Shown piece after piece: positions 1,070 through 12,540 of a stretch of DNA of 12,540 nt. Source of the DNA: Candidatus Heimdallarchaeota archaeon (GTDB lineage: Archaea > Asgardarchaeota > Heimdallarchaeia > Heimdallarchaeales > Heimdallarchaeaceae); the NCBI GenBank assembly GCA_019057375.1, contig DXJF01000056.1, positions 1-12,540 on the forward strand, read 5' to 3'. The first letter of the stretch is position 1. Each line of letters begins with the position of its first letter. The notes beneath the pieces are model-generated. The model ran no database searches and was not told where the DNA came from. It was given only the letters and a program-made list of their open reading frames with translations. Position numbers and translations under genes: made by a program.

Positions 1070-1543
1070 CTACAGTTTCTTGAGTTGATGGTTTCTGATT
1101 AAATCTGATTCTTCCTCAATTGTTACTCCGATCATATGGTCTCCTTGATTTATCTTATTAACCACATTCATTCCATCAACAACTTTACCAAAAACAGTAT
1201 GTTTGCCATTCAAGTGCTTACAGCTATTAGGATTCAACACAATAAAAAACTGTGAACCATTTGTATTTGGTCCAGAATTAGCCATACTTAAAGCTCCTAG
1301 AACATGTATTTGTACGGGATTATCTACCTCATCAACGATTTGGTATCCAGGTCCACCTCCACCGGTTCCTGAAGGATCCCCTCCTTGAACAACAAAATCT
1401 GGTATAACTCTATGGAATTTAACTCCATTATAGAAACCTGATTGAGCCAATGAAACAATGTTCTTGACAGTATTAGGTGTTTGTTCATCAAAAAATTCTA
1501 TTGTAAAAGTTCCCTTGTTAGTTTCAACTTTTGCTTTAGTCAT
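1070..1543 (-). CDS. ppiA: Cyclophilin-type peptidyl-prolyl cis-trans isomerase
   Basis: Canonical motifs FYNGVKFHRVIPDFVVQGGDP, GTGGGGPGY, SMANSGPNTNGSQFFI, HLNGKHTVFGKV. SD-like GGAGAT at 1548-1553 (minus strand). Confidence 0.97.
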   Translation of the reverse strand: MTKAKVETNKGTFTIEFFDEQTPNTVKNIVSLAQSGFYNGVKFHRVIPDFVVQGGDPSGTGGGGPGYQIVDEVDNPVQIHVLGALSMANSGPNTNGSQFFIVLNPNSCKHLNGKHTVFGKVVDGMNVVNKINQGDHMIGVTIEEESDLIRNHQLKKL

Positions 1544-1583: not shown

Positions 1584-1661
1584 CATAATGATGAGTCAAC
1601 ATCTCACACCAAGAATTTATTTAATGCAACTCACTTTAATCTACTAGTGGTGCAAAACTGT

Positions 1662-2126
1662 ATGAGCACAGAAGAAATACAAAATCTAAAACCCAAACCC
1701 AAAATCAAAACACCACCATGGATTTCTGCTGTTTTAGCACTTGTTTATACTGTAACATTGGTTTTTCTTTTACTTACAAGCATGGAGTCAGCTTTTGATT
1801 TTGTTGAAGATTTCTTCAAGCAAATGCCTAATGGTGTTTGGTTTTTTGAAGTTCCGATTCCAATAATCTGTGCTTTATTTGTTTATTATGGTGCTCAACA
1901 TAGTCAGAAAAGAAGTTTGAACATCTTAGTCTTCATGTCTTCAGCTTTAGGAATTATTGCTATTGGAATTGGCGTTTACTTTATTCTCTCCAAATATTCA
2001 ATAATTCTTAATAATAGTAAAGCTGACTTCATCTTCTTCTTGATTCTTCTAGCCATTTCCCTTATCATTGCAATTGGTTCTATATTTATCACGAAATTTA
2101 TTAGAAAGAAGAAAACCTTGCAGTAA
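1662..2126 (+). CDS. Hypothetical integral membrane protein (~4 TM helices); GTG at 1647 is an alternative start
   Basis: Four hydrophobic segments, Lys/Pro-rich N-terminus and basic C-terminal tail (KFIRKKK). No family motif recognised. Confidence 0.8.
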   Translation: MSTEEIQNLKPKPKIKTPPWISAVLALVYTVTLVFLLLTSMESAFDFVEDFFKQMPNGVWFFEVPIPIICALFVYYGAQHSQKRSLNILVFMSSALGIIAIGIGVYFILSKYSIILNNSKADFIFFLILLAISLIIAIGSIFITKFIRKKKTLQ

Positions 2127-2449
2127 GGTCCCTTGACCAGAAAGTGACCTAAACAACAAGGTTGTTTTCGAAAATATTAACTCTTCTAATAAGGTAGTAA
2201 CTATTTTTGATTGTAATCTAGAGCACCTTTTATTTACAATCATTCTGTCATCAAAGAACGAAGTAAACTCTAAGAACTGCAAATGAACATTATTACTTGT
2301 CTAAGTTTATAGTAAATTTTAATAATAGCGAGCTTTTGAAAAAAAGCAGATTAGTTTAGTAAAAGTTGATTTTTCTCTCATTTTAGGTGAATCTTTAAAA
2401 TAAACTAGTACAAATTAAACAATATTCTCCTTTGAGAAACTAATTTAAG

Positions 2450-3925
2450 GTGAAAAAATTGTCACATAAAGAAGATGTTTTAGATAAAAGTGATATTAGA
2501 GAAACTGAATTAGAATCAAAACAGACAAGTTCAAAAAATGCTTGGTTATGGTATAGCTATGATATGGCAGATACCTTCTTTTCACAATCTGTAATAAGTT
2601 TAGCATTCACTCCATTTGTTTTGTTAATGGGTGTCCAAATGGGTTGGAGGTTTGCTACAGTATTTATTGTAATGTCTGTATTCATGGCTGGTTCAAATCT
2701 TTTGATTGCTATATTCGGACCAATCTTGGGGGCTATTTCAGATAAAGTTGGAAAAAGAAAGCCAGCAGTGCTTATTTCAGCTGGTATAATGGTTACTATG
2801 ACCGCGTTAATCACAGTTTGGTCAAACTTTTGGTGGGCGTGTATCTTATTTGTTATTGCAAATTTCTGTTATCAAGCAGGTCGAATGTTTTATGATGCTC
2901 AAATTCCATTCATTGCTGAAACAGAAAAAAGAGGTTTTACACAAGCCATCGGCGGTGCACTTGCAGCTTTTGGCTCAGTAATTGCAATAGCTATAAGTAT
3001 TATTATAGGTCTTCCCAGCTTATTTGGTCCACATACTCATGTAGATACCGGAATCTGGCAAGTAGGGGAAGTAGCAATTGATCCAAATACTATAAACTAT
3101 GGTGGATTGAGATATTTATTTTTAATATCAGCTATCGTTATAATTTTGATTAGTATTCCTTACCTCTTCCATAAAGAGGTAGAAAATCCCCCTGAGGAAA
3201 AGATGTCACCAAGAGAGCATGTGAAATCATCATTATCTGCCTTCAAAACTTCACTTAAAGAGATTATTTCTGATAGAAATTCATGGTTGTTCTTCTTAGC
3301 TTGGTTCTTCATCACAGATGCTGCAAATACAACGATTCTGTACATGGTACCTGTGGTTTCAGCTATGGGTGGACCAACACTTGAGGGAATGACAAATTAT
3401 ATTATTCTAGGAGGAATAATTTTCTCAATAATCTTTGGTATTCTTGTTGGAAGACTTATGAATAGATTAGGACCGAAAAAATTATTCCTAGCTGTTGCCA
3501 TATCCTGGTTTATTGCGATAGTTATTTTCGTCCTAAGTGGATTACAAATAGGTTCAGTAACAATTCCTACCTGGCTAATATGGTTTGGTGCGGTATTCAT
3601 AGGTGTAGGTTTCGGAGGAATATGGATCGTTGGGAGACAATTCATTATGGTTCTTGCACCACCATCAAAACTTGCACAATATGGTGGTTTCCAAAAAATA
3701 GCTGGAAGAGTAAGTGCAATTGTATCCCCACTCCTGTTTGGTTTGGTGATTTTTCTTACTGATGATTTATTTACACCACCAGGTCCAATGAGAGTTGCTC
3801 TTGCTAGTTTGTTAGTACTTTTCTCAATAGGAATTATTATTGCATTGTTTATCAAAGACCCTCATGAAAGGTACATGAAAGGTGAAAGAGCACCATACAA
3901 AGGAATTTACGACAAGAAGGAGTAA
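2450..3925 (+). CDS. MFS transporter, UMF1/Atg22-like family
   Basis: 491 aa, GTG start, ~12 TM segments. N-terminal WLWYSYDMADTFF (W-x2-YD-x-A pattern of UMF1/Atg22), MFS motif A GAISDKVGKRK, and its repeat GRLMNRLGPKK. Confidence 0.9.
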   Translation: MKKLSHKEDVLDKSDIRETELESKQTSSKNAWLWYSYDMADTFFSQSVISLAFTPFVLLMGVQMGWRFATVFIVMSVFMAGSNLLIAIFGPILGAISDKVGKRKPAVLISAGIMVTMTALITVWSNFWWACILFVIANFCYQAGRMFYDAQIPFIAETEKRGFTQAIGGALAAFGSVIAIAISIIIGLPSLFGPHTHVDTGIWQVGEVAIDPNTINYGGLRYLFLISAIVIILISIPYLFHKEVENPPEEKMSPREHVKSSLSAFKTSLKEIISDRNSWLFFLAWFFITDAANTTILYMVPVVSAMGGPTLEGMTNYIILGGIIFSIIFGILVGRLMNRLGPKKLFLAVAISWFIAIVIFVLSGLQIGSVTIPTWLIWFGAVFIGVGFGGIWIVGRQFIMVLAPPSKLAQYGGFQKIAGRVSAIVSPLLFGLVIFLTDDLFTPPGPMRVALASLLVLFSIGIIIALFIKDPHERYMKGERAPYKGIYDKKE

Positions 3926-3955
3926 TTCCTCTTTTCTTATTTTTTCATTTTTTTA
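3926..3955 (+). terminator. Probable oligo-T terminator of the MFS gene, overlapping the convergent HAD stop codon
   Basis: ttcctcttttcttattttttcattttttt immediately after TAA. Confidence 0.5.
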
Positions 3956-4697
3956 GAAGCTTAGTTATTACTTCTGGTAATTCATTCATATGTTCCACAT
4001 AGTATCTATACGAAGGTTCGAACTCTCCTGTTAAACAAGCTTGAATAACATTTGCTCCAATCTTTTCAGCAAATTCTAGGAAAATAGGTTTATCTTCAAT
4101 TACTATTGCTCTTTTGGGATCTAAATTAATTTCCTTGAAAATCCTATCATAGAAAACCTCGTTGCTCTTATGAGTATTTACCAAATCTGGTCCATAGAAG
4201 TTTTCGAAACAGTCTTTTACTCTCATTCCCCTTAAGTATCCTTTTAGTTCAACTGAGTGTTCTCCTGAAGCAGTAAACAGCCTAAACCCTTGGCTGTGAA
4301 GGCTTTTAATTGCTTCAACCACCCCTGGAAAAGCGGCCTTTGTATTAGGCGTTATAGCTTCTATTACTTCAAAGTAGATTATATTGTGCATCTCTTCAGG
4401 GGGAACTTTAACTCCTACATAATCAAACATACTAGTTACCCATCTCAAAATAAAATCTGAATAATAATCATTATACTCAATTAATTCTTCATTTTCTGCA
4501 GCTTTAGTATATTCTGCCATAATTTCATTGATGAATTCAAAGTTCGCTTCACTCCATTTATGAGATTCTCCCCCATACTTTGGTGAAAAAAAATCCCCTA
4601 TCATTTTCTGCCACTGAATGCCGCGTAATATATTGTCATTCATTACCCCTCCATCATCAAAGAATATTGAGAATTCAGGAGAATTATTTCTAGCCAT
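3945..4697 (-). CDS. HAD-superfamily hydrolase (subfamily IA-like, C1 cap)
   Basis: Motif I IFFDDGGV, motif II LFTASG, motif III Lys in HKSNEVFY, motif IV IVIEDK. Helical cap between motifs I and II. Confidence 0.88.
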   Translation of the reverse strand: MARNNSPEFSIFFDDGGVMNDNILRGIQWQKMIGDFFSPKYGGESHKWSEANFEFINEIMAEYTKAAENEELIEYNDYYSDFILRWVTSMFDYVGVKVPPEEMHNIIYFEVIEAITPNTKAAFPGVVEAIKSLHSQGFRLFTASGEHSVELKGYLRGMRVKDCFENFYGPDLVNTHKSNEVFYDRIFKEINLDPKRAIVIEDKPIFLEFAEKIGANVIQACLTGEFEPSYRYYVEHMNELPEVITKLLKK

Positions 4698-6799: not shown

Positions 6800-7456
6800 T
6801 TACAGAAAATCTGTCAAAGATTTCTGTTCTCCTTGTCCTTTGGTTGGTCTCTTGTTATCAGAAGTTATTTCATTTTGATTTAAGAGATTTAGGTATAAAC
6901 TCTTAATACCTTCGAAATGTTCATTGTAAACATCCATTAAGTTATAGTTACGTAAAATGTATGCAGGATGATATGTTACATACAATTTTATCCCAAAATC
7001 TGTGTCATAAGATTTTCCAACATACTTAGTTACTGCAGCAGAGGGGATGAAGAATCTCAAGGCTATAGAACCAATGGTTACAATAAGTTTTGGTGATAGT
7101 AATTTCAATTGTTTGAATAACCATCTCTCACCACAGAATTTCAACTCTGAATTTGTTGGTGTTCTATTGTTGTTATCTTCTGTAGTTGGACGGCACTTTA
7201 TTACATTAAGGATACTCAGATCCTTCTTCCTTTCTAGACCAATACCTGAAAGCATATTGTCAAGTAGCTTTCCTGATCTACCAACAAAAGGTATGCCTTG
7301 TTTATCTTCATGATAACCTGGTGCTTCCCCAATTATACACAAACTATTCTTTGGACCATAGAGACCTGGAACAACTTGAGTCCTACTATCCTTCAGGTGA
7401 CAAGCTTCACATGTGACGATATCTTCTGTCAACTTTGCTATCTCATCTTTTGCCAT
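6800..7456 (-). CDS. udg: Family-4 uracil-DNA glycosylase ([4Fe-4S])
   Basis: CEACHL, GEAPG, PFVGRSG, NVIKCRP, NRTP...FC, TYHPAY; four cluster cysteines present. SD-like AGGAGA at 7465-7470 (minus strand). Confidence 0.96.
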   Translation of the reverse strand: MAKDEIAKLTEDIVTCEACHLKDSRTQVVPGLYGPKNSLCIIGEAPGYHEDKQGIPFVGRSGKLLDNMLSGIGLERKKDLSILNVIKCRPTTEDNNNRTPTNSELKFCGERWLFKQLKLLSPKLIVTIGSIALRFFIPSAAVTKYVGKSYDTDFGIKLYVTYHPAYILRNYNLMDVYNEHFEGIKSLYLNLLNQNEITSDNKRPTKGQGEQKSLTDFL

Positions 7457-7522
7457 AAATTTTATCTCCTCTGTAAAAATACAAAAAAAAGAGGATTTAT
7501 TAAGCTATTCCCAATTAAACCA
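7457..7522. promoter_or_regulatory. Compact divergent promoter region
   Basis: 66-nt gap between divergent starts. TTTATTAA at 7496-7503 (TTAATAAA on the minus strand), with purine-rich AAAAAAAGAGGA on its 5' side. Confidence 0.55.
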
Positions 7523-8863
7523 ATGGTCAAGTTGAAAGATACAATCTTAGAAGCGGATATACTAGTTACCTGCAATCCAAAAAACAATATTATCAAAGAT
7601 GCTGCTGTTTATGTGTCTAATGGGTTAATTCATGGTGTGGGAACAAAAAAAGAAATTCATAAGGAATTTTCAGCAACAAAAATAATTGACGGAAACAACA
7701 AAATTTTACTCCCAGGTTTAGTAAACACACACAGTCACAGCGTTCAAACATTTCTAAGAGGAAAGGCGGATGATTATGCCCTTTTAGATTGGTTAAAGAA
7801 GGTGGTTTTACCAGGCGAAGCTCGTTTTACTGCAGAAGAAGTCTACAATTCATCACTTCTAGGTTTTGCTGAAATGATAAGAACGGGTACTACTACATCA
7901 AATGATATGCTTACTACTCATGATTCAGATTCTGGAATTAAAGCAGCAAAGGAAATTGGAATCAGGACAAGAATAGGTAAAATGCTGATGGATTATAGTA
8001 ATGATTTTCCGGAAATAATAGTTGAAGATACTGAAACAGTAATTGAATCTGCTAGAAAGCAAATTGATGAATATCATCAAAAGCAAAATGGGAAAGTTAA
8101 ATACTCTCTAAATGCAAGATTTCTTCTATCCTGTTCATCTGAATTGATGAAGCTTATTGTGGAAACAAAAGACGAATATGAAGATTTAATGATTCATTCA
8201 CATGCTTCAGAATCTCAAGCTGAATGTTCCGAAGTTGTAAGAATATTTGGAGATAACTATTTTAGATCTCTGAAGAAACTAGATGCTCTAGGTTCAGAAA
8301 CAATACTAGCCCATGGAATCTGGCTAGATGATGAGGAATACAATTTAGTTAAACAAACAAATACTAGAATAACTCACAATCCGAGCAGTAACAGCAAATT
8401 GGCTTCAGGAATATGTGATGTTCTCCGATATCATGAGTTGGGTGTTATTGTGGGTATTGGAACGGATGGTCCTCCATGTAATAATAATTTTGATATGTTT
8501 CATGATATGCGTTTAGCAGCATTTTTGCAGAAGGTTAAACATTTAGATGAACTGGCTTTACCCACAGAGAAGGTTCTAAGAATGGCAACAATAGAAGGAG
8601 CTCAAGCCATAAACTGGGGAACAGAGATAGGTTCAATTGAAGCAGGGAAAAAAGCTGATTTAACAATGGTAAATATTAATGAAGTAAACTCTTTTCCACT
8701 TTACAACCCTGTTTCCCATTTAGTTTATTCAGCTAGCGGTAAAGATGTAAGGATGACTATGATTGATGGGGAAATTGTTTTCAAAGATGGAAACTATCTG
8801 ACTATTGATATTGAAAAAGTAAAAAGAGCAGCTATTAAATATCAAGTGAAATGGACGGAGTAG
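7523..8863 (+). CDS. Metal-dependent amidohydrolase, MtaD/5'-deoxyadenosine deaminase (ATZ/TRZ-like) family; start corrected from 7298
   Basis: PGLVNTHSH (HxH), QTFLRGKADD..LLDWL, HSHASES, AHGIWL, HNPSSNSKLASG, GTDGPPCNN. The ORF-track extension 7298-7522 is antisense to udg. Confidence 0.92.
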   Translation: MVKLKDTILEADILVTCNPKNNIIKDAAVYVSNGLIHGVGTKKEIHKEFSATKIIDGNNKILLPGLVNTHSHSVQTFLRGKADDYALLDWLKKVVLPGEARFTAEEVYNSSLLGFAEMIRTGTTTSNDMLTTHDSDSGIKAAKEIGIRTRIGKMLMDYSNDFPEIIVEDTETVIESARKQIDEYHQKQNGKVKYSLNARFLLSCSSELMKLIVETKDEYEDLMIHSHASESQAECSEVVRIFGDNYFRSLKKLDALGSETILAHGIWLDDEEYNLVKQTNTRITHNPSSNSKLASGICDVLRYHELGVIVGIGTDGPPCNNNFDMFHDMRLAAFLQKVKHLDELALPTEKVLRMATIEGAQAINWGTEIGSIEAGKKADLTMVNINEVNSFPLYNPVSHLVYSASGKDVRMTMIDGEIVFKDGNYLTIDIEKVKRAAIKYQVKWTE

Positions 8864-10489: not shown

Positions 10490-11059
10490 ATGACAGAAGA
10501 CGAGGGGCAAGGAAAGAAGTATATCTTCAAAATAGTTCTACTAGGAGACCCAGGAGTAGGTAAAAGTTCTCTTATTACTAGATTTGTACACAACCGATTC
10601 CAAGCATCATATCTTATGACAATAGGAGTAGACATTCTAAGCAAACAATTATTTGTTGGAAATGATGAAGTGTTGTTTCTAATAAGTGATATTGGGGGAC
10701 AAGAACGATTTGCATCAGTTAGAGAAAAATTCTATCGAGGAGCAAGAGGATGTTTCTTAGTTTATGATCTCACAAGAAATAACACTCTAAATTCTTTGAA
10801 AGCATGGAAGAAAGGATTAGAGAGTGTGGAAGAAGATGCAATATACTTCCTTATAGGAAATAAAGCAGATTTAAAAGAACAAATTGCCGTTTCACAAGAA
10901 AATATTGATACCATTATTAAAGAATTAAATATACCAAAGGATTCTTTCTTTGTTACATCAGCAAAAACCGGTGAAAAAGTAGAAGATGCATTCAGAACCT
11001 TTGCGCAAGAACTAATGAAAGATGTAGAACGAAAAAGAGTAGAATTTGGGTTAGATTAA
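10490..11059 (+). CDS. Rab-like small GTPase (Ras superfamily; eukaryotic signature protein)
   Basis: G1 GDPGVGKS, G2 TIGVD, G3 DIGGQ, G4 NKAD, G5 SAK. RabF-like RFASVR, FYRGA, LVYDLT. No C-terminal Cys. Confidence 0.95.
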   Translation: MTEDEGQGKKYIFKIVLLGDPGVGKSSLITRFVHNRFQASYLMTIGVDILSKQLFVGNDEVLFLISDIGGQERFASVREKFYRGARGCFLVYDLTRNNTLNSLKAWKKGLESVEEDAIYFLIGNKADLKEQIAVSQENIDTIIKELNIPKDSFFVTSAKTGEKVEDAFRTFAQELMKDVERKRVEFGLD

Positions 11060-11171: not shown

Positions 11172-11280
11172 GGGGCAGTAGTTTAGCCTGGCCTATGATG
11201 GGGGACTGTCAAGTTCCTTGCAGTCTTGCATTGAATGCCGAACTCCTTCGACCCGGGTTCAAATCCCGGCTGCCTCGCCA
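11172..11280 (+). tRNA. trnD: tRNA-Asp(GTC) with 31-nt intron at 37/38 and encoded CCA
   Basis: Acceptor GGGGCAG/CTGCCTC, discriminator G73, CCA. Anticodon stem GGGGA/TCCTT, loop CT-GTC-A^C. 4-nt variable loop. T arm CCGGG-TTCAAAT-CCCGG. Mature length 78 nt. Confidence 0.92.
11212..11242 (+). other. tRNA intron with relaxed BHB motif
   Basis: Central helix CTGT/GCCG contains a U-C mismatch and a U-G wobble; bulges CA^A and AA^C; outer helix GTTC/GAAT; internal hairpin TGCA-GTCT-TGCA. Confidence 0.8.
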
Positions 11281-11334: not shown

Positions 11335-11967
11335 ATGAAACGATATGCTCTATTATTCACGTTTGTTGTACCTCTGATAGTAGGGTTATCAATAGTTGGT
11401 ACTCCTGCTTCTGCAGATAAATATGTTGTAGAGGACGGGGACTTACTTGATTATGGCTACCAGCTGTATGTTGATGGAAATCCTGTTGAAACTCGTGATG
11501 AGGAAAATCCTGTTAAAATAGTTATCAGAACTACCAGCATTACTCCTCCTGGTCTATATCAACACCTTATCGGTATGAGAAACGGAGAAATAAAAGATTA
11601 CTTTGTCATCCAACCTGAGGAAGGTTTTGAAGACGGACCTTATGTTAGTCTAGCTTTAACTTATTATAATCTCCAGATTTACAAGATTAATGGCTATCAT
11701 TCTACTGAACTTCCAACTGAACCACCAACGAAAAGTTTTGGATATTGGGTTCTTGTGATAGGTGGAGGAATTTTAGGGACAGCAGGGGCAATATTCCTGA
11801 TTTATGGTGGTTATCGTTTTTATCCTAAGATTTTTGGTAAACGATGTATGACTTGCAAAAAAAGTGCTCTAGGTAACTGTAAGAACTGTGGACAAGCATT
11901 TTGCGATAACTGTTATTCCAGTGGTTGTCCAAATTGCAAAGGAAGATCTCTCATTAGATTCAAATGA
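11335..11967 (+). CDS. Type-I membrane protein: signal peptide, FKBP-like ectodomain, TM helix, cytoplasmic 8-Cys zinc finger (start corrected from 11218)
   Basis: MKRY+hydrophobic+ASA signal. FKBP-like VEDGDLLDYGYQLYVDG...PGLYQHLIGMRNGEIK...PEEGF...LTYYNLQIYKI. TM FGYWVLVIGGGILGTAGAIFLIYGGY. Tail C-x2-C-x7-C-x2-C-x4-C-x2-C-x4-C-x2-C. The track's TTG start lies inside the tRNA intron. Confidence 0.85.
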   Translation: MKRYALLFTFVVPLIVGLSIVGTPASADKYVVEDGDLLDYGYQLYVDGNPVETRDEENPVKIVIRTTSITPPGLYQHLIGMRNGEIKDYFVIQPEEGFEDGPYVSLALTYYNLQIYKINGYHSTELPTEPPTKSFGYWVLVIGGGILGTAGAIFLIYGGYRFYPKIFGKRCMTCKKSALGNCKNCGQAFCDNCYSSGCPNCKGRSLIRFK

Positions 11968-12019: not shown

Positions 12020-12540
12020 ATGAGGCGTTGCTTCCATTATACACTATTACTTGTTGTTATATCGTCTTTAGTTCCTACTCAGTTTACAACAGTAGAAGCC
12101 TATGACCAGCTTTATGGGGTGGAGTATGATGATGTTGTTGATGTGGCTTTTATTAGCTGGATTAATGGAGTATTTTCTAATAATTATACTGCAGATGGTC
12201 CTTTCAGAATTGCTGTTAACCCAAGTGTAATAAATGTCCATTTTATTGATGAGCTTATTGGGATGATGGTAGGTGAAGTAAAACCCTATATTACCTGGAA
12301 TGATACAGTGGGGAATTTAATCGAATATTATGATACAACCATAGTAAAATTAGTGAAAGATTCTACTCCAGACTCATCACCAGCTTGGAGAATAATTCGT
12401 CCAATTCTTTTATCTATAATTGGGATAGGCATAGTCATTGGTAGTATTTATGCAGGAGTAAAAATTCGTCAACGTATAGGAATAAAAGGGTGCACTACTT
12501 GCAGTAATAAAGCATCCTCTAAATGCGCTAAATGTGGAAA
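12020..12540 (+). CDS. Tandem paralog of the preceding gene, truncated by window end (alternative ATG at 11972); absent from the ORF track
   Basis: Manual translation: MRRCFHYTLLLVVISSLVPTQFTTVEA | YDQLYGVEYDDVVDVAFISWINGVFSNNYTADGPFRIAVNPSVINVHFIDELIGMMVGEVKPYITWNDTVGNLIEYYDTTIVKL...PILLSIIGIGIVIGSIYAGVKIRQRIGIKGCTTCSNKASSKCAKCG. No stop before the window edge. Confidence 0.88.
   Translation, partial: MRRCFHYTLLLVVISSLVPTQFTTVEAYDQLYGVEYDDVVDVAFISWINGVFSNNYTADGPFRIAVNPSVINVHFIDELIGMMVGEVKPYITWNDTVGNLIEYYDTTIVKLVKDSTPDSSPAWRIIRPILLSIIGIGIVIGSIYAGVKIRQRIGIKGCTTCSNKASSKCAKCG

Follow-up and report, generated by a model that had tools for sequence, protein, structure and literature searches.

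The window analysed here, 12,540 nucleotides long, is the entire contig DXJF01000056.1 (C157 in our numbering) of the Candidatus Heimdallarchaeota archaeon assembly GCA_019057375.1 (3.47 Mb, 33% GC, 89% complete). Near its end lie two tandem genes on the forward strand, gene A (11335..11967, ATG to TGA, stop included) and its paralog, gene B, which begins at 12020. The product of gene A is a predicted type I membrane protein of 210 amino acids, and the translation reproduces exactly the reading frame and every internal coordinate given in an earlier reading of the bare sequence (hereafter, the original prediction). The protein begins with a Sec-type signal peptide (residues 1-27, 11335..11415), read from the sequence as an MKR n-region, a hydrophobic core and a PASA/DK junction, of which Ala27 is invariant in 21 homologues. 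The signal peptide is followed by a minimal FKBP-fold ectodomain with a diverged active-site pocket and without an insert-in-flap (IF) domain (residues 31-119, 11425..11691), and by a Pro/Thr-rich stalk (residues 120-134, 11692..11736; STELPTEPPTKS) that is modelled at low confidence (predicted local distance difference test, pLDDT, about 63). The single transmembrane helix (residues 135-160, 11737..11814) is Gly/Ala-rich, with a small-xxx-small pattern and an invariant G148; its hydropathy peaks at 2.14 over residues 138-156, and the AlphaFold2 (AF2) model extends the helix over residues 135-167. Beyond the membrane come a basic juxtamembrane segment, RFYPKIFGKR (11815..11844), in which P164, G168, K169 and R170 are invariant among A-type proteins, an eight-Cys module, CMTC-x7-CKNC-x4-CDNC-x4-CPNC (residues 171-201, 11845..11937), and a C-terminal strand, KGRSLIRFK (11938..11964), that fits the family motif [KG][SG][RN]x[FL][IV][RP].

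The two faces of the protein differ sharply in composition. Six Lys or Arg residues fall within the 16 positions after the transmembrane helix as against one in the 16 before it, the pattern expected under the positive-inside rule; all eight Cys are confined to one 31-residue stretch of the tail, the ectodomain being Cys-free; and the ectodomain is acidic (18 Asp/Glu vs 8 Lys/Arg), whereas the tail is basic (11 Lys/Arg vs 1 Asp/Glu). From the signal peptide, the positive-inside charge, the acidic Cys-free ectodomain and the basic Cys-rich tail, we infer an N-out/C-in, type I topology, in agreement with the order of signal peptide, ectodomain, single helix and positive-inside tail in the original prediction. 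The whole architecture recurs in 20 homologues with 41-88% identity, all from metagenome-assembled genomes (MAGs) of the Heimdall group and all with the eight Cys invariant; the nearest relatives of gene A come from MAGs annotated as Heimdallarchaeota or Heimdallarchaeaceae. Searches of Pfam, NCBIfam and the literature produced no described family with this architecture, as had been claimed; NCBIfam contains no model for it, and no description of it appears in the literature searched. We regard the architecture as previously undescribed, a variation on membrane-anchored FKBP foldases that is confined to part of Heimdallarchaeia; we know of no described membrane-anchored archaeal FKBP.

At the sequence level, the similarity of the ectodomain to FKBPs is marginal, with residues 32-100 scoring 23.1 bits against the Pfam model FKBP_C (PF00254; cut-off 21.1), and the family profile retrieves FKBP26 of M. 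jannaschii (MjFKBP26, 3pr9) from the PDB with an E value of 0.004. The structural model of gene A has a pLDDT of about 90 over residues 31-120, and a Foldseek search with it yielded 44 PDB matches at E <= 1e-3, FKBPs throughout among the matches listed, the top ones being human FKBP11 (9n9j_A, E 1.2e-5), SlyD delta-IF, FKBP13 (4nnr) and FKBP2. The target-normalised TM-scores (TMt) to the FKBP matches range from 0.69 to 0.77, with FKBP13 (4nnr) at 0.77. More distant relatives that carry the same tail are clear FKBPs by Pfam (P0039, 74.5 bits; P0048, 51.9 bits). As modelled, the ectodomain of gene A has the FKBP fold, and the FKBP-like segment of the original prediction is confirmed by the Pfam score, the model confidence and the Foldseek matches together. 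The closest resemblance in sequence signature is to SlyD-type FKBPs (3pr9; T. thermophilus SlyD delta-IF, 4odq), which have in common with gene A the PGL…GM..GE signature and a Leu at the position of FKBP12 W59, and the model of gene A matches SlyD delta-IF constructs with a TMt of about 0.7. The SlyD-type proteins are cytoplasmic and soluble and contain the insert-in-flap chaperone domain, whereas the gene A product is exported and anchored, lacks the insert and has a diverged pocket. The pocket residues of gene A were mapped via an alignment of P0039 with plant and mycobacterial FKBPs; P0039 retains the equivalents of FKBP12 Y26, F36, D37, Y82 and F99, and at Y26/F36/D37/F46/V55/I56/W59/Y82/F99 gene A has Y/V/E/I/T/P/L/F/Y, respectively.

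Gene B has the same architecture with a more degenerate FKBP fold. It occupies 12020..12540 of the window (forward strand), with the transmembrane helix at about 12404-12460 and the zinc module from 12491 onwards, and continues on contig C22; the two contigs abut, and a 5-nt overlap, GGAAA (window 12536-12540), unites the two parts of the gene, the last 24 codons and the stop being located at C22:1-75 and ending in GKHYCSNCSSKGCTNCGSRQFIRY. Full-length orthologues of gene B are available (P0022 and P0023), and the orthologues score no more than 13 bits on FKBP_C. In the alignment of the gene B family, the ectodomain (window 12098-12394) has an invariant set of its own, AYD..G.E..D, N72, W93, D114 and P117. 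The invariant residues, several of which are acidic, include the mature N-terminus AYD along with G33, E35, D38, N72, E86, W93, Y103, D114 and P117. This set may reflect a conserved role in binding that has nothing to do with prolyl isomerisation, and catalysis by gene B seems unlikely from its sequence. Both ectodomains, A and B, are under selection. The A-B tandem is kept throughout the home family, and some genomes have an A-A'-B triplet; such triplets, at L025:3905-5861, L026:3875-5858 and L029:4001-5960, consist of A, a shorter second A-like copy and then B.

An exhaustive search of 1.84 billion representative sequences with the family profile gave 327 matches at E <= 1e-3, and about 77 of the collected proteins carry the tail. 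Among these 77 tails, metal ligands 1, 3, 4, 5, 7 and 8 never vary, ligand 2 is conserved in 76, and the residue at ligand 6 differs between tails: 55 have Cys, 16 Ser, 4 His and 2 Asp. A His appears inside the first CxxC (CxHC) in 15 of the 16 tails with Ser as ligand 6, compared to one of the 55 with Cys; the 15 CxHC tails form one subfamily, so that this covariation may reflect a single evolutionary event. Given the covariation, ligand 6 would share its site with ligands 1 and 2. The AF2 model of the tail built from the 77 sequences (pLDDT 83, about 90 over the finger) is a single compact domain with a small sheet, a one-turn helix and a C-terminal strand (model residues 46-48) that packs back onto it. 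The tail is accordingly predicted to be a cross-brace finger with two zinc sites, C1, C2, C5 and C6 forming the first and C3, C4, C7 and C8 the second, with the KGRSLIRFK strand predicted to complete the small beta-sheet. It is likely to bind two metal ions, most likely zinc.

Comparison of the tail model with known structures is consistent with this assignment. Foldseek found no PDB match at E <= 1e-3, and the weak matches were RING, U-box, B-box, ZZ or FYVE domains without exception (query-normalised TM-score, TMq, 0.5-0.63). With VIA-align, the B-box1 of PML ranked first (Z 4.2), followed within 1 Z unit by ZZ, RING, U-box and plant B-box domains. A shape search of the ESM Atlas returned B-box, ANCHR-like B-box, RING and ZZ clusters (TM-score 0.55-0.68), and an Atlas feature search gave scores of 0.78 at most, which is noise level. 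Judging by the models, the fold class of the tail is clear, without a single outstanding family. The alternative of two independent zinc ribbons of the DZR type was considered and rejected: pairs 3 and 4 are separated by 4 residues, the AF2 model is one compact domain, and the covariation links distant ligands; in addition, the DZR model did not match gene A in the Pfam scan. Such a split fold had been named in the original prediction as an outcome that would refute it, and it was not seen in the compact model, the cross-brace matches or the His/Ser covariation.

The chemistry of the site could, in principle, be different, with the eight Cys binding iron in rubredoxin-type centres or forming a redox switch tied to extracytoplasmic thiol chemistry. 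Site 2 reads CxxCG…CPxC[GK], the wording of a rubredoxin knuckle, and one member of the tail family, described below, is a thiol-disulfide oxidoreductase that lies beside a DsbD_TM/Redoxin gene on its contig. The same knuckles are, however, common in zinc ribbons, a single transmembrane helix offers no electron path to the ectodomain, and the FKBP members have no redox chemistry, so that we regard this possibility as highly improbable.

The original prediction described the tail as a RING/B-box-like zinc finger, and this can be evaluated against the criteria for each family. The consensus for RING domains is C-x2-C-x(9-39)-C-x(1-3)-H-x(2-3)-C-x2-C-x(4-48)-C-x2-C. The tail deviates from it twice, with 7 residues in loop 1 (9-39 in RING) and 4 between ligands 4 and 5 (2-3 in RING), and no Pfam RING model matched gene A in hmmscan, even at E <= 10. 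In contrast, the first six ligands have exactly the spacing of B-box type 1 (C-x2-C-x7-C-x2-C-x4-C-x2-C), as had been noted in the original prediction, with PML B-box1 being the top VIA-align match; the last pair, CPxC, departs from the H…H of B-boxes. The B-box1 domains of PML/TRIM19 (2mvw) and TRIM28 (6o5k) and the tail are alike in this six-ligand spacing and, as predicted for the tail, in the cross-brace fold, the alignment to PML B1 (VIA-align Z 4.2) covering 49 residues and the ANCHR-like B-box cluster reaching a TM-score of 0.66. Unlike a B-box, the tail is C-terminal, directly following a transmembrane helix, and is not embedded in a TRIM or BBX protein, and the Pfam B-box scores of 14-18 bits are low: zf-B_box (PF00643) gives 14.2 bits (cut-off 24.1) over profile positions 4-30, PF22586 gives 13.6 bits (cut-off 27), and the best B-box score among the relatives is 17.7 bits. 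Pfam matches of the tail family to FYVE (E 4.2), AN1, HIT and IBR are far under their cut-offs and were set aside. We place the tail among the cross-brace fingers of B-box/RING-like type, outside any described family. Of the earlier description, the single cross-brace, RING/B-box-like module is supported as a prediction; the tail falls outside the RING family by its broken spacing and the lack of a Pfam match, and its B-box scores stay under the cut-off.

Whether the tail could act as a ubiquitin ligase is a separate question, and the genome does encode a ubiquitin system, as the original prediction anticipated. Contig C132 carries a Ub-E1-E2 operon (ubiquitin, 25735-25947; E1-like, 26131-26859; E2, 27252-27518), contig C151 a second pair of Ub-like and ThiF genes, and the genome encodes two further strong E2s (C102:44659-45030 and C97:2755-3228), with four E2-like genes overall. 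A scan of the genome with zf-RING_2 gave 14 matches, 11 of them above the cut-off, all outside gene A, whose tail was not among them. At least 11 open reading frames (ORFs) are canonical RING-H2 proteins, on contigs C124, C12, C154, C116, C107 and C100; several are predicted to have 1-7 transmembrane helices with the RING at the C-terminus, among them three arranged in tandem on C116 (32345-35548), and these membrane RING-H2 proteins are, by sequence, the candidate membrane E3 ligases of this archaeon. In this setting, the gene A product could be a transmembrane RING-like ligase, its ectodomain recognising surface or misfolded proteins and its finger recruiting E2~Ub, possibly as a heterodimer of an active A and an inactive B. 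The layout, an ectodomain, a single transmembrane helix and a cytoplasmic cross-brace finger, is that of the PA-TM-RING ligases (RNF43/ZNRF3, GRAIL/RNF128), from which gene A differs in that the ectodomain is an FKBP rather than a PA domain and the finger is not a RING-H2; a link to an E2 was not found. Many of the weak structural matches are RING or U-box E3s, among them the dimeric IDOL, BIRC7, cIAP1 and MDM2. The CPxCK ending, whose RING-like Pro after ligand 7 is present only in A-type tails, resembles the CPxC[RK] linchpin of RING domains and, as in dimeric RINGs, is followed by a C-terminal strand bearing an aromatic residue; B-type tails have Gly at the position of the Lys.

The details of the alignment argue against this reading. 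An hhalign comparison of the tail with eight RING-H2 domains of the same genome superposes the ligand pairs and reaches a probability of only 44%, the tail being 5 residues short in loop 1 and 6 short in the segment that contains the central helix and the invariant Trp, 11 in all; with 4 residues between ligands 6 and 7, the E2-binding helix and the Trp of RING domains are absent. The C1+2 position, where RING domains classically have an Ile or Val that contacts the E2, is Thr in gene A, and it is Ile or Val in just 23 of the 77 tails. The genome already has its canonical RING-H2 ORFs, several of them membrane-embedded, and in the examined contexts of the tail family, neither ubiquitin genes nor genes for regulators, proteases or transcription factors are conserved neighbours. 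A transmembrane RING-like ligase therefore appears decidedly unlikely, and the same low standing applies to the more specific proposal of a minimal divergent RING/B-box-type E3 (or E4) in which A (CPxCK) would be active, B would serve as a scaffold, and their FKBP ectodomains, like the thioredoxin ectodomain of the tail-sharing relative described below, would report misfolded exported proteins to the ubiquitin system. On sequence grounds, E3 activity of the tail is unsupported.

The charge of the tail suggests other roles. The 77 tails have a mean net charge of +9.4, none being negative, and many members have Lys-rich C-termini. Placed directly after a transmembrane helix, a module with a charge of about +10 could bind anionic lipids, in the manner of FYVE or PHD domains, or retain proteins in a particular membrane region, and FYVE and ANCHR-like B-box domains are indeed found among the weak matches. 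Against such a membrane-surface or sorting module speaks the Pfam FYVE match, with an E value of 4.2, as does the near-complete conservation over 50 residues in the A-type proteins, which a simple anchor would not need; we consider it quite unlikely.

The proteins that carry the tail point in a different direction. We scanned 83 genomes of the class with the tail profile and found the tail in 62, with 1-4 full-scoring copies per positive genome. By family, the tail is present in 29 of 30 genomes of f1, all 12 of f2, the single genome of f3 and 19 of 22 of f5, and it was not found in f4 (0 of 3), f6 (0 of 12) or f7 (0 of 2); the source names of the members include Heimdallarchaeaceae, Kariarchaeaceae and Hodarchaeales. 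Outside the class, the matches in 301 genomes of the phylum spanned the FKBP part only. A word-indexed search with the tail profile returned 21 proteins and missed known members, P0065 among them, so that the ectodomain partners were listed from the genome scans instead. P0065 (271 amino acids) consists of a signal peptide, an AhpC-TSA/Redoxin/thioredoxin domain (77 bits, WCPPC) that scores 99.8 bits against the ResA model, and the same transmembrane helix and tail, the latter with B-type wording (RIGIKHC…GSRQFIRL). Equivalents of P0065 of about 270 residues are present in many genomes of the same genus, one of which was confirmed (G145:C109, AhpC-TSA 63 bits). All tail carriers with an examined ectodomain are of either FKBP type or thioredoxin type. 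Because the same transmembrane helix and tail are fused to an exported ResA-like thioredoxin, the tail would mark surface folding catalysts; going by the domain content of its carriers, it is a tag on two kinds of extracytoplasmic folding catalyst and not the hallmark of a diverse receptor family. Near P0065 on its contig (JGI 3300042731; genes at 1646-4469 and 6898-7713) are genes for two more proteins, one of 431 aa (AhpC-TSA/Redoxin) and one of 485 aa (Redoxin+DsbD_TM), which suggests an extracytoplasmic thiol-redox cluster; this arrangement is not kept in G145.

These observations also bear on the receptor interpretation, according to which the protein would sense envelope stress or a ligand, with the basic finger holding and releasing a regulator or being freed by intramembrane proteolysis to bind nucleic acid. 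The layout is receptor-like and the tail very basic; the pocket of the FKBP domain has degenerated in A and further still in B, which suggests binding more than catalysis; and DNA binding is known for some cross-brace fingers, such as the piggyBac finger 5lme, one of the structural matches. Yet the regulators, proteases and transcription factors that such a pathway would call for are not conserved neighbours, distant members retain a canonical-looking FKBP pocket, and a catalytic WCPPC thioredoxin with the same tail fits better with enzymes that need to be placed. A sensor of this kind strikes us as unlikely. The function given in the original prediction, a sensor that signals or ubiquitinates on the inside, is thus disfavoured by the ligand spacing, the absent helix and Trp, the 44% hhalign probability, the lack of a ubiquitin neighbour and the thioredoxin-fused tail.

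We lean towards the view that gene A encodes a membrane-tethered surface folding helper, with a shared cytoplasmic docking or assembly tag, rather than a catalytic ubiquitin ligase. Under this scenario, export by Sec and cleavage of the signal peptide would leave the FKBP domain on its Pro/Thr stalk at the outer face of the membrane, where it would most likely function as a peptidyl-prolyl isomerase (PPIase) or chaperone for exported proteins. The Gly/Ala-rich helix would span the membrane, and on its cytoplasmic side the approximately 50 very basic residues of the tail would wrap around two metal ions. The degenerate and probably non-catalytic paralog, gene B, would act as a partner. Working from inside the cell, the tail would collect surface folding catalysts or hold them in position, with the ribosome-bound Sec translocon or an anionic membrane surface as candidate docking sites.

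The first of these sites is proposed by analogy to FKBP11. In the eukaryotic endoplasmic reticulum (ER), FKBP11 as well as the TMX thioredoxins have a type I membrane topology and a short tail in the cytosol. FKBP11 (FKBP19) and gene A are alike, in layout only, in having a signal peptide, a non-cytosolic FKBP domain, one transmembrane helix and a short basic cytosolic C-terminus. FKBP11 is a transmembrane FKBP with a conserved, positively charged helix at its C-terminus that is important in binding the ribosome. This helix adjoins uL22 and helix H24 of the 28S rRNA at the secretory translocon, where the protein acts as a ribosome-binding adaptor, and the FKBP site may work as an adaptor instead of an isomerase (PMC12804085). 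The tail of FKBP11 is a basic helix, whereas that of gene A is a zinc finger, the sequences are about 18% identical, and the likeness in layout does not establish common descent of the whole architecture. The same functional niche, that of PPIase-family and thioredoxin-family catalysts at the outer face of the cytoplasmic membrane, is occupied in bacteria by the PrsA lipoprotein, PpiD at SecYEG, and the ResA/TlpA thiol-disulfide oxidoreductases; these are anchored N-terminally or by a lipid and have no cytoplasmic domain, and PrsA and PpiD are parvulins, not FKBPs.

Several observations weigh against a surface folding helper. Only the equivalent of Y26 is identical in the gene A pocket, the other positions being mostly conservative, and judging from these residues, PPIase catalysis in gene A is doubtful and may have been lost, in which case the ectodomains could bind a ligand instead. 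In gene B, the equivalent of D37 is Asn and the 80s (Y82) loop is deleted. The tail belongs to a fold class that includes E3 ligases, and the A-type CPxCK ending is RING-like. Docking at the translocon or ribosome is a suggestion made from analogy and charge. Finally, a thioredoxin-type tail carrier was not found in this 89%-complete assembly.

Little is understood of how archaea fold proteins outside the cytoplasm. In this lineage-specific family from Heimdallarchaeia, of all archaeal classes the one closest to eukaryotes, a single conserved zinc finger on the cytoplasmic side is combined with two classes of folding catalyst, FKBP and thioredoxin, in a layout like that of eukaryotic ER FKBP11 and TMX. 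If the tail docks to the ribosome-translocon complex, co-translocational recruitment of folding factors would be older than eukaryotes. If, instead, the tail were an E3, it would connect the quality control of surface proteins with ubiquitin in a prokaryote, and an A/B ligase would represent an archaeal precursor of ER-associated quality control among the nearest relatives that eukaryotes have. With its 50 residues, the tail is a small domain that lends itself to expression, and its partner can be searched for directly.

The A-B pair is flanked by two tRNA genes. Directly upstream of gene A is tRNA-Asp(GTC) (11172-11280, forward strand), whose anticodon loop is interrupted by a 31-nt intron; this tRNA scores 38 bits against the Rfam tRNA model and is detected by ARAGORN with introns allowed but not in the default mode; beyond the end of gene B is tRNA-Ser(CGA) (C22:106-188). 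Further upstream, at 10490-11059 on the forward strand, lies a gene for a small GTPase of 189 amino acids, the orthologues of which match Pfam Arf/Ras/Roc. The surrounding 15 kb are syntenic in the home family, in the order MFS, HAD, PGM, UDG, amidohydrolase, GHMP kinase, HIT, small GTPase, A, B, RNase E/G-like and DUF2797, and the distant tail-bearing members have gene contexts unrelated to this synteny. Because the whole region is syntenic within the family and the contexts of distant members are unrelated, adjacency of the GTPase is not evidence of a functional link; a tie between it and gene A was considered and dropped, and the GTPase is probably a mere neighbour. At the other end of the window, a 157-aa ORF (1070-1543, reverse strand) reads like a cyclophilin-type PPIase (FHRVIPDFVVQGGDP) without a signal peptide, and is presumably a cytoplasmic PPIase.

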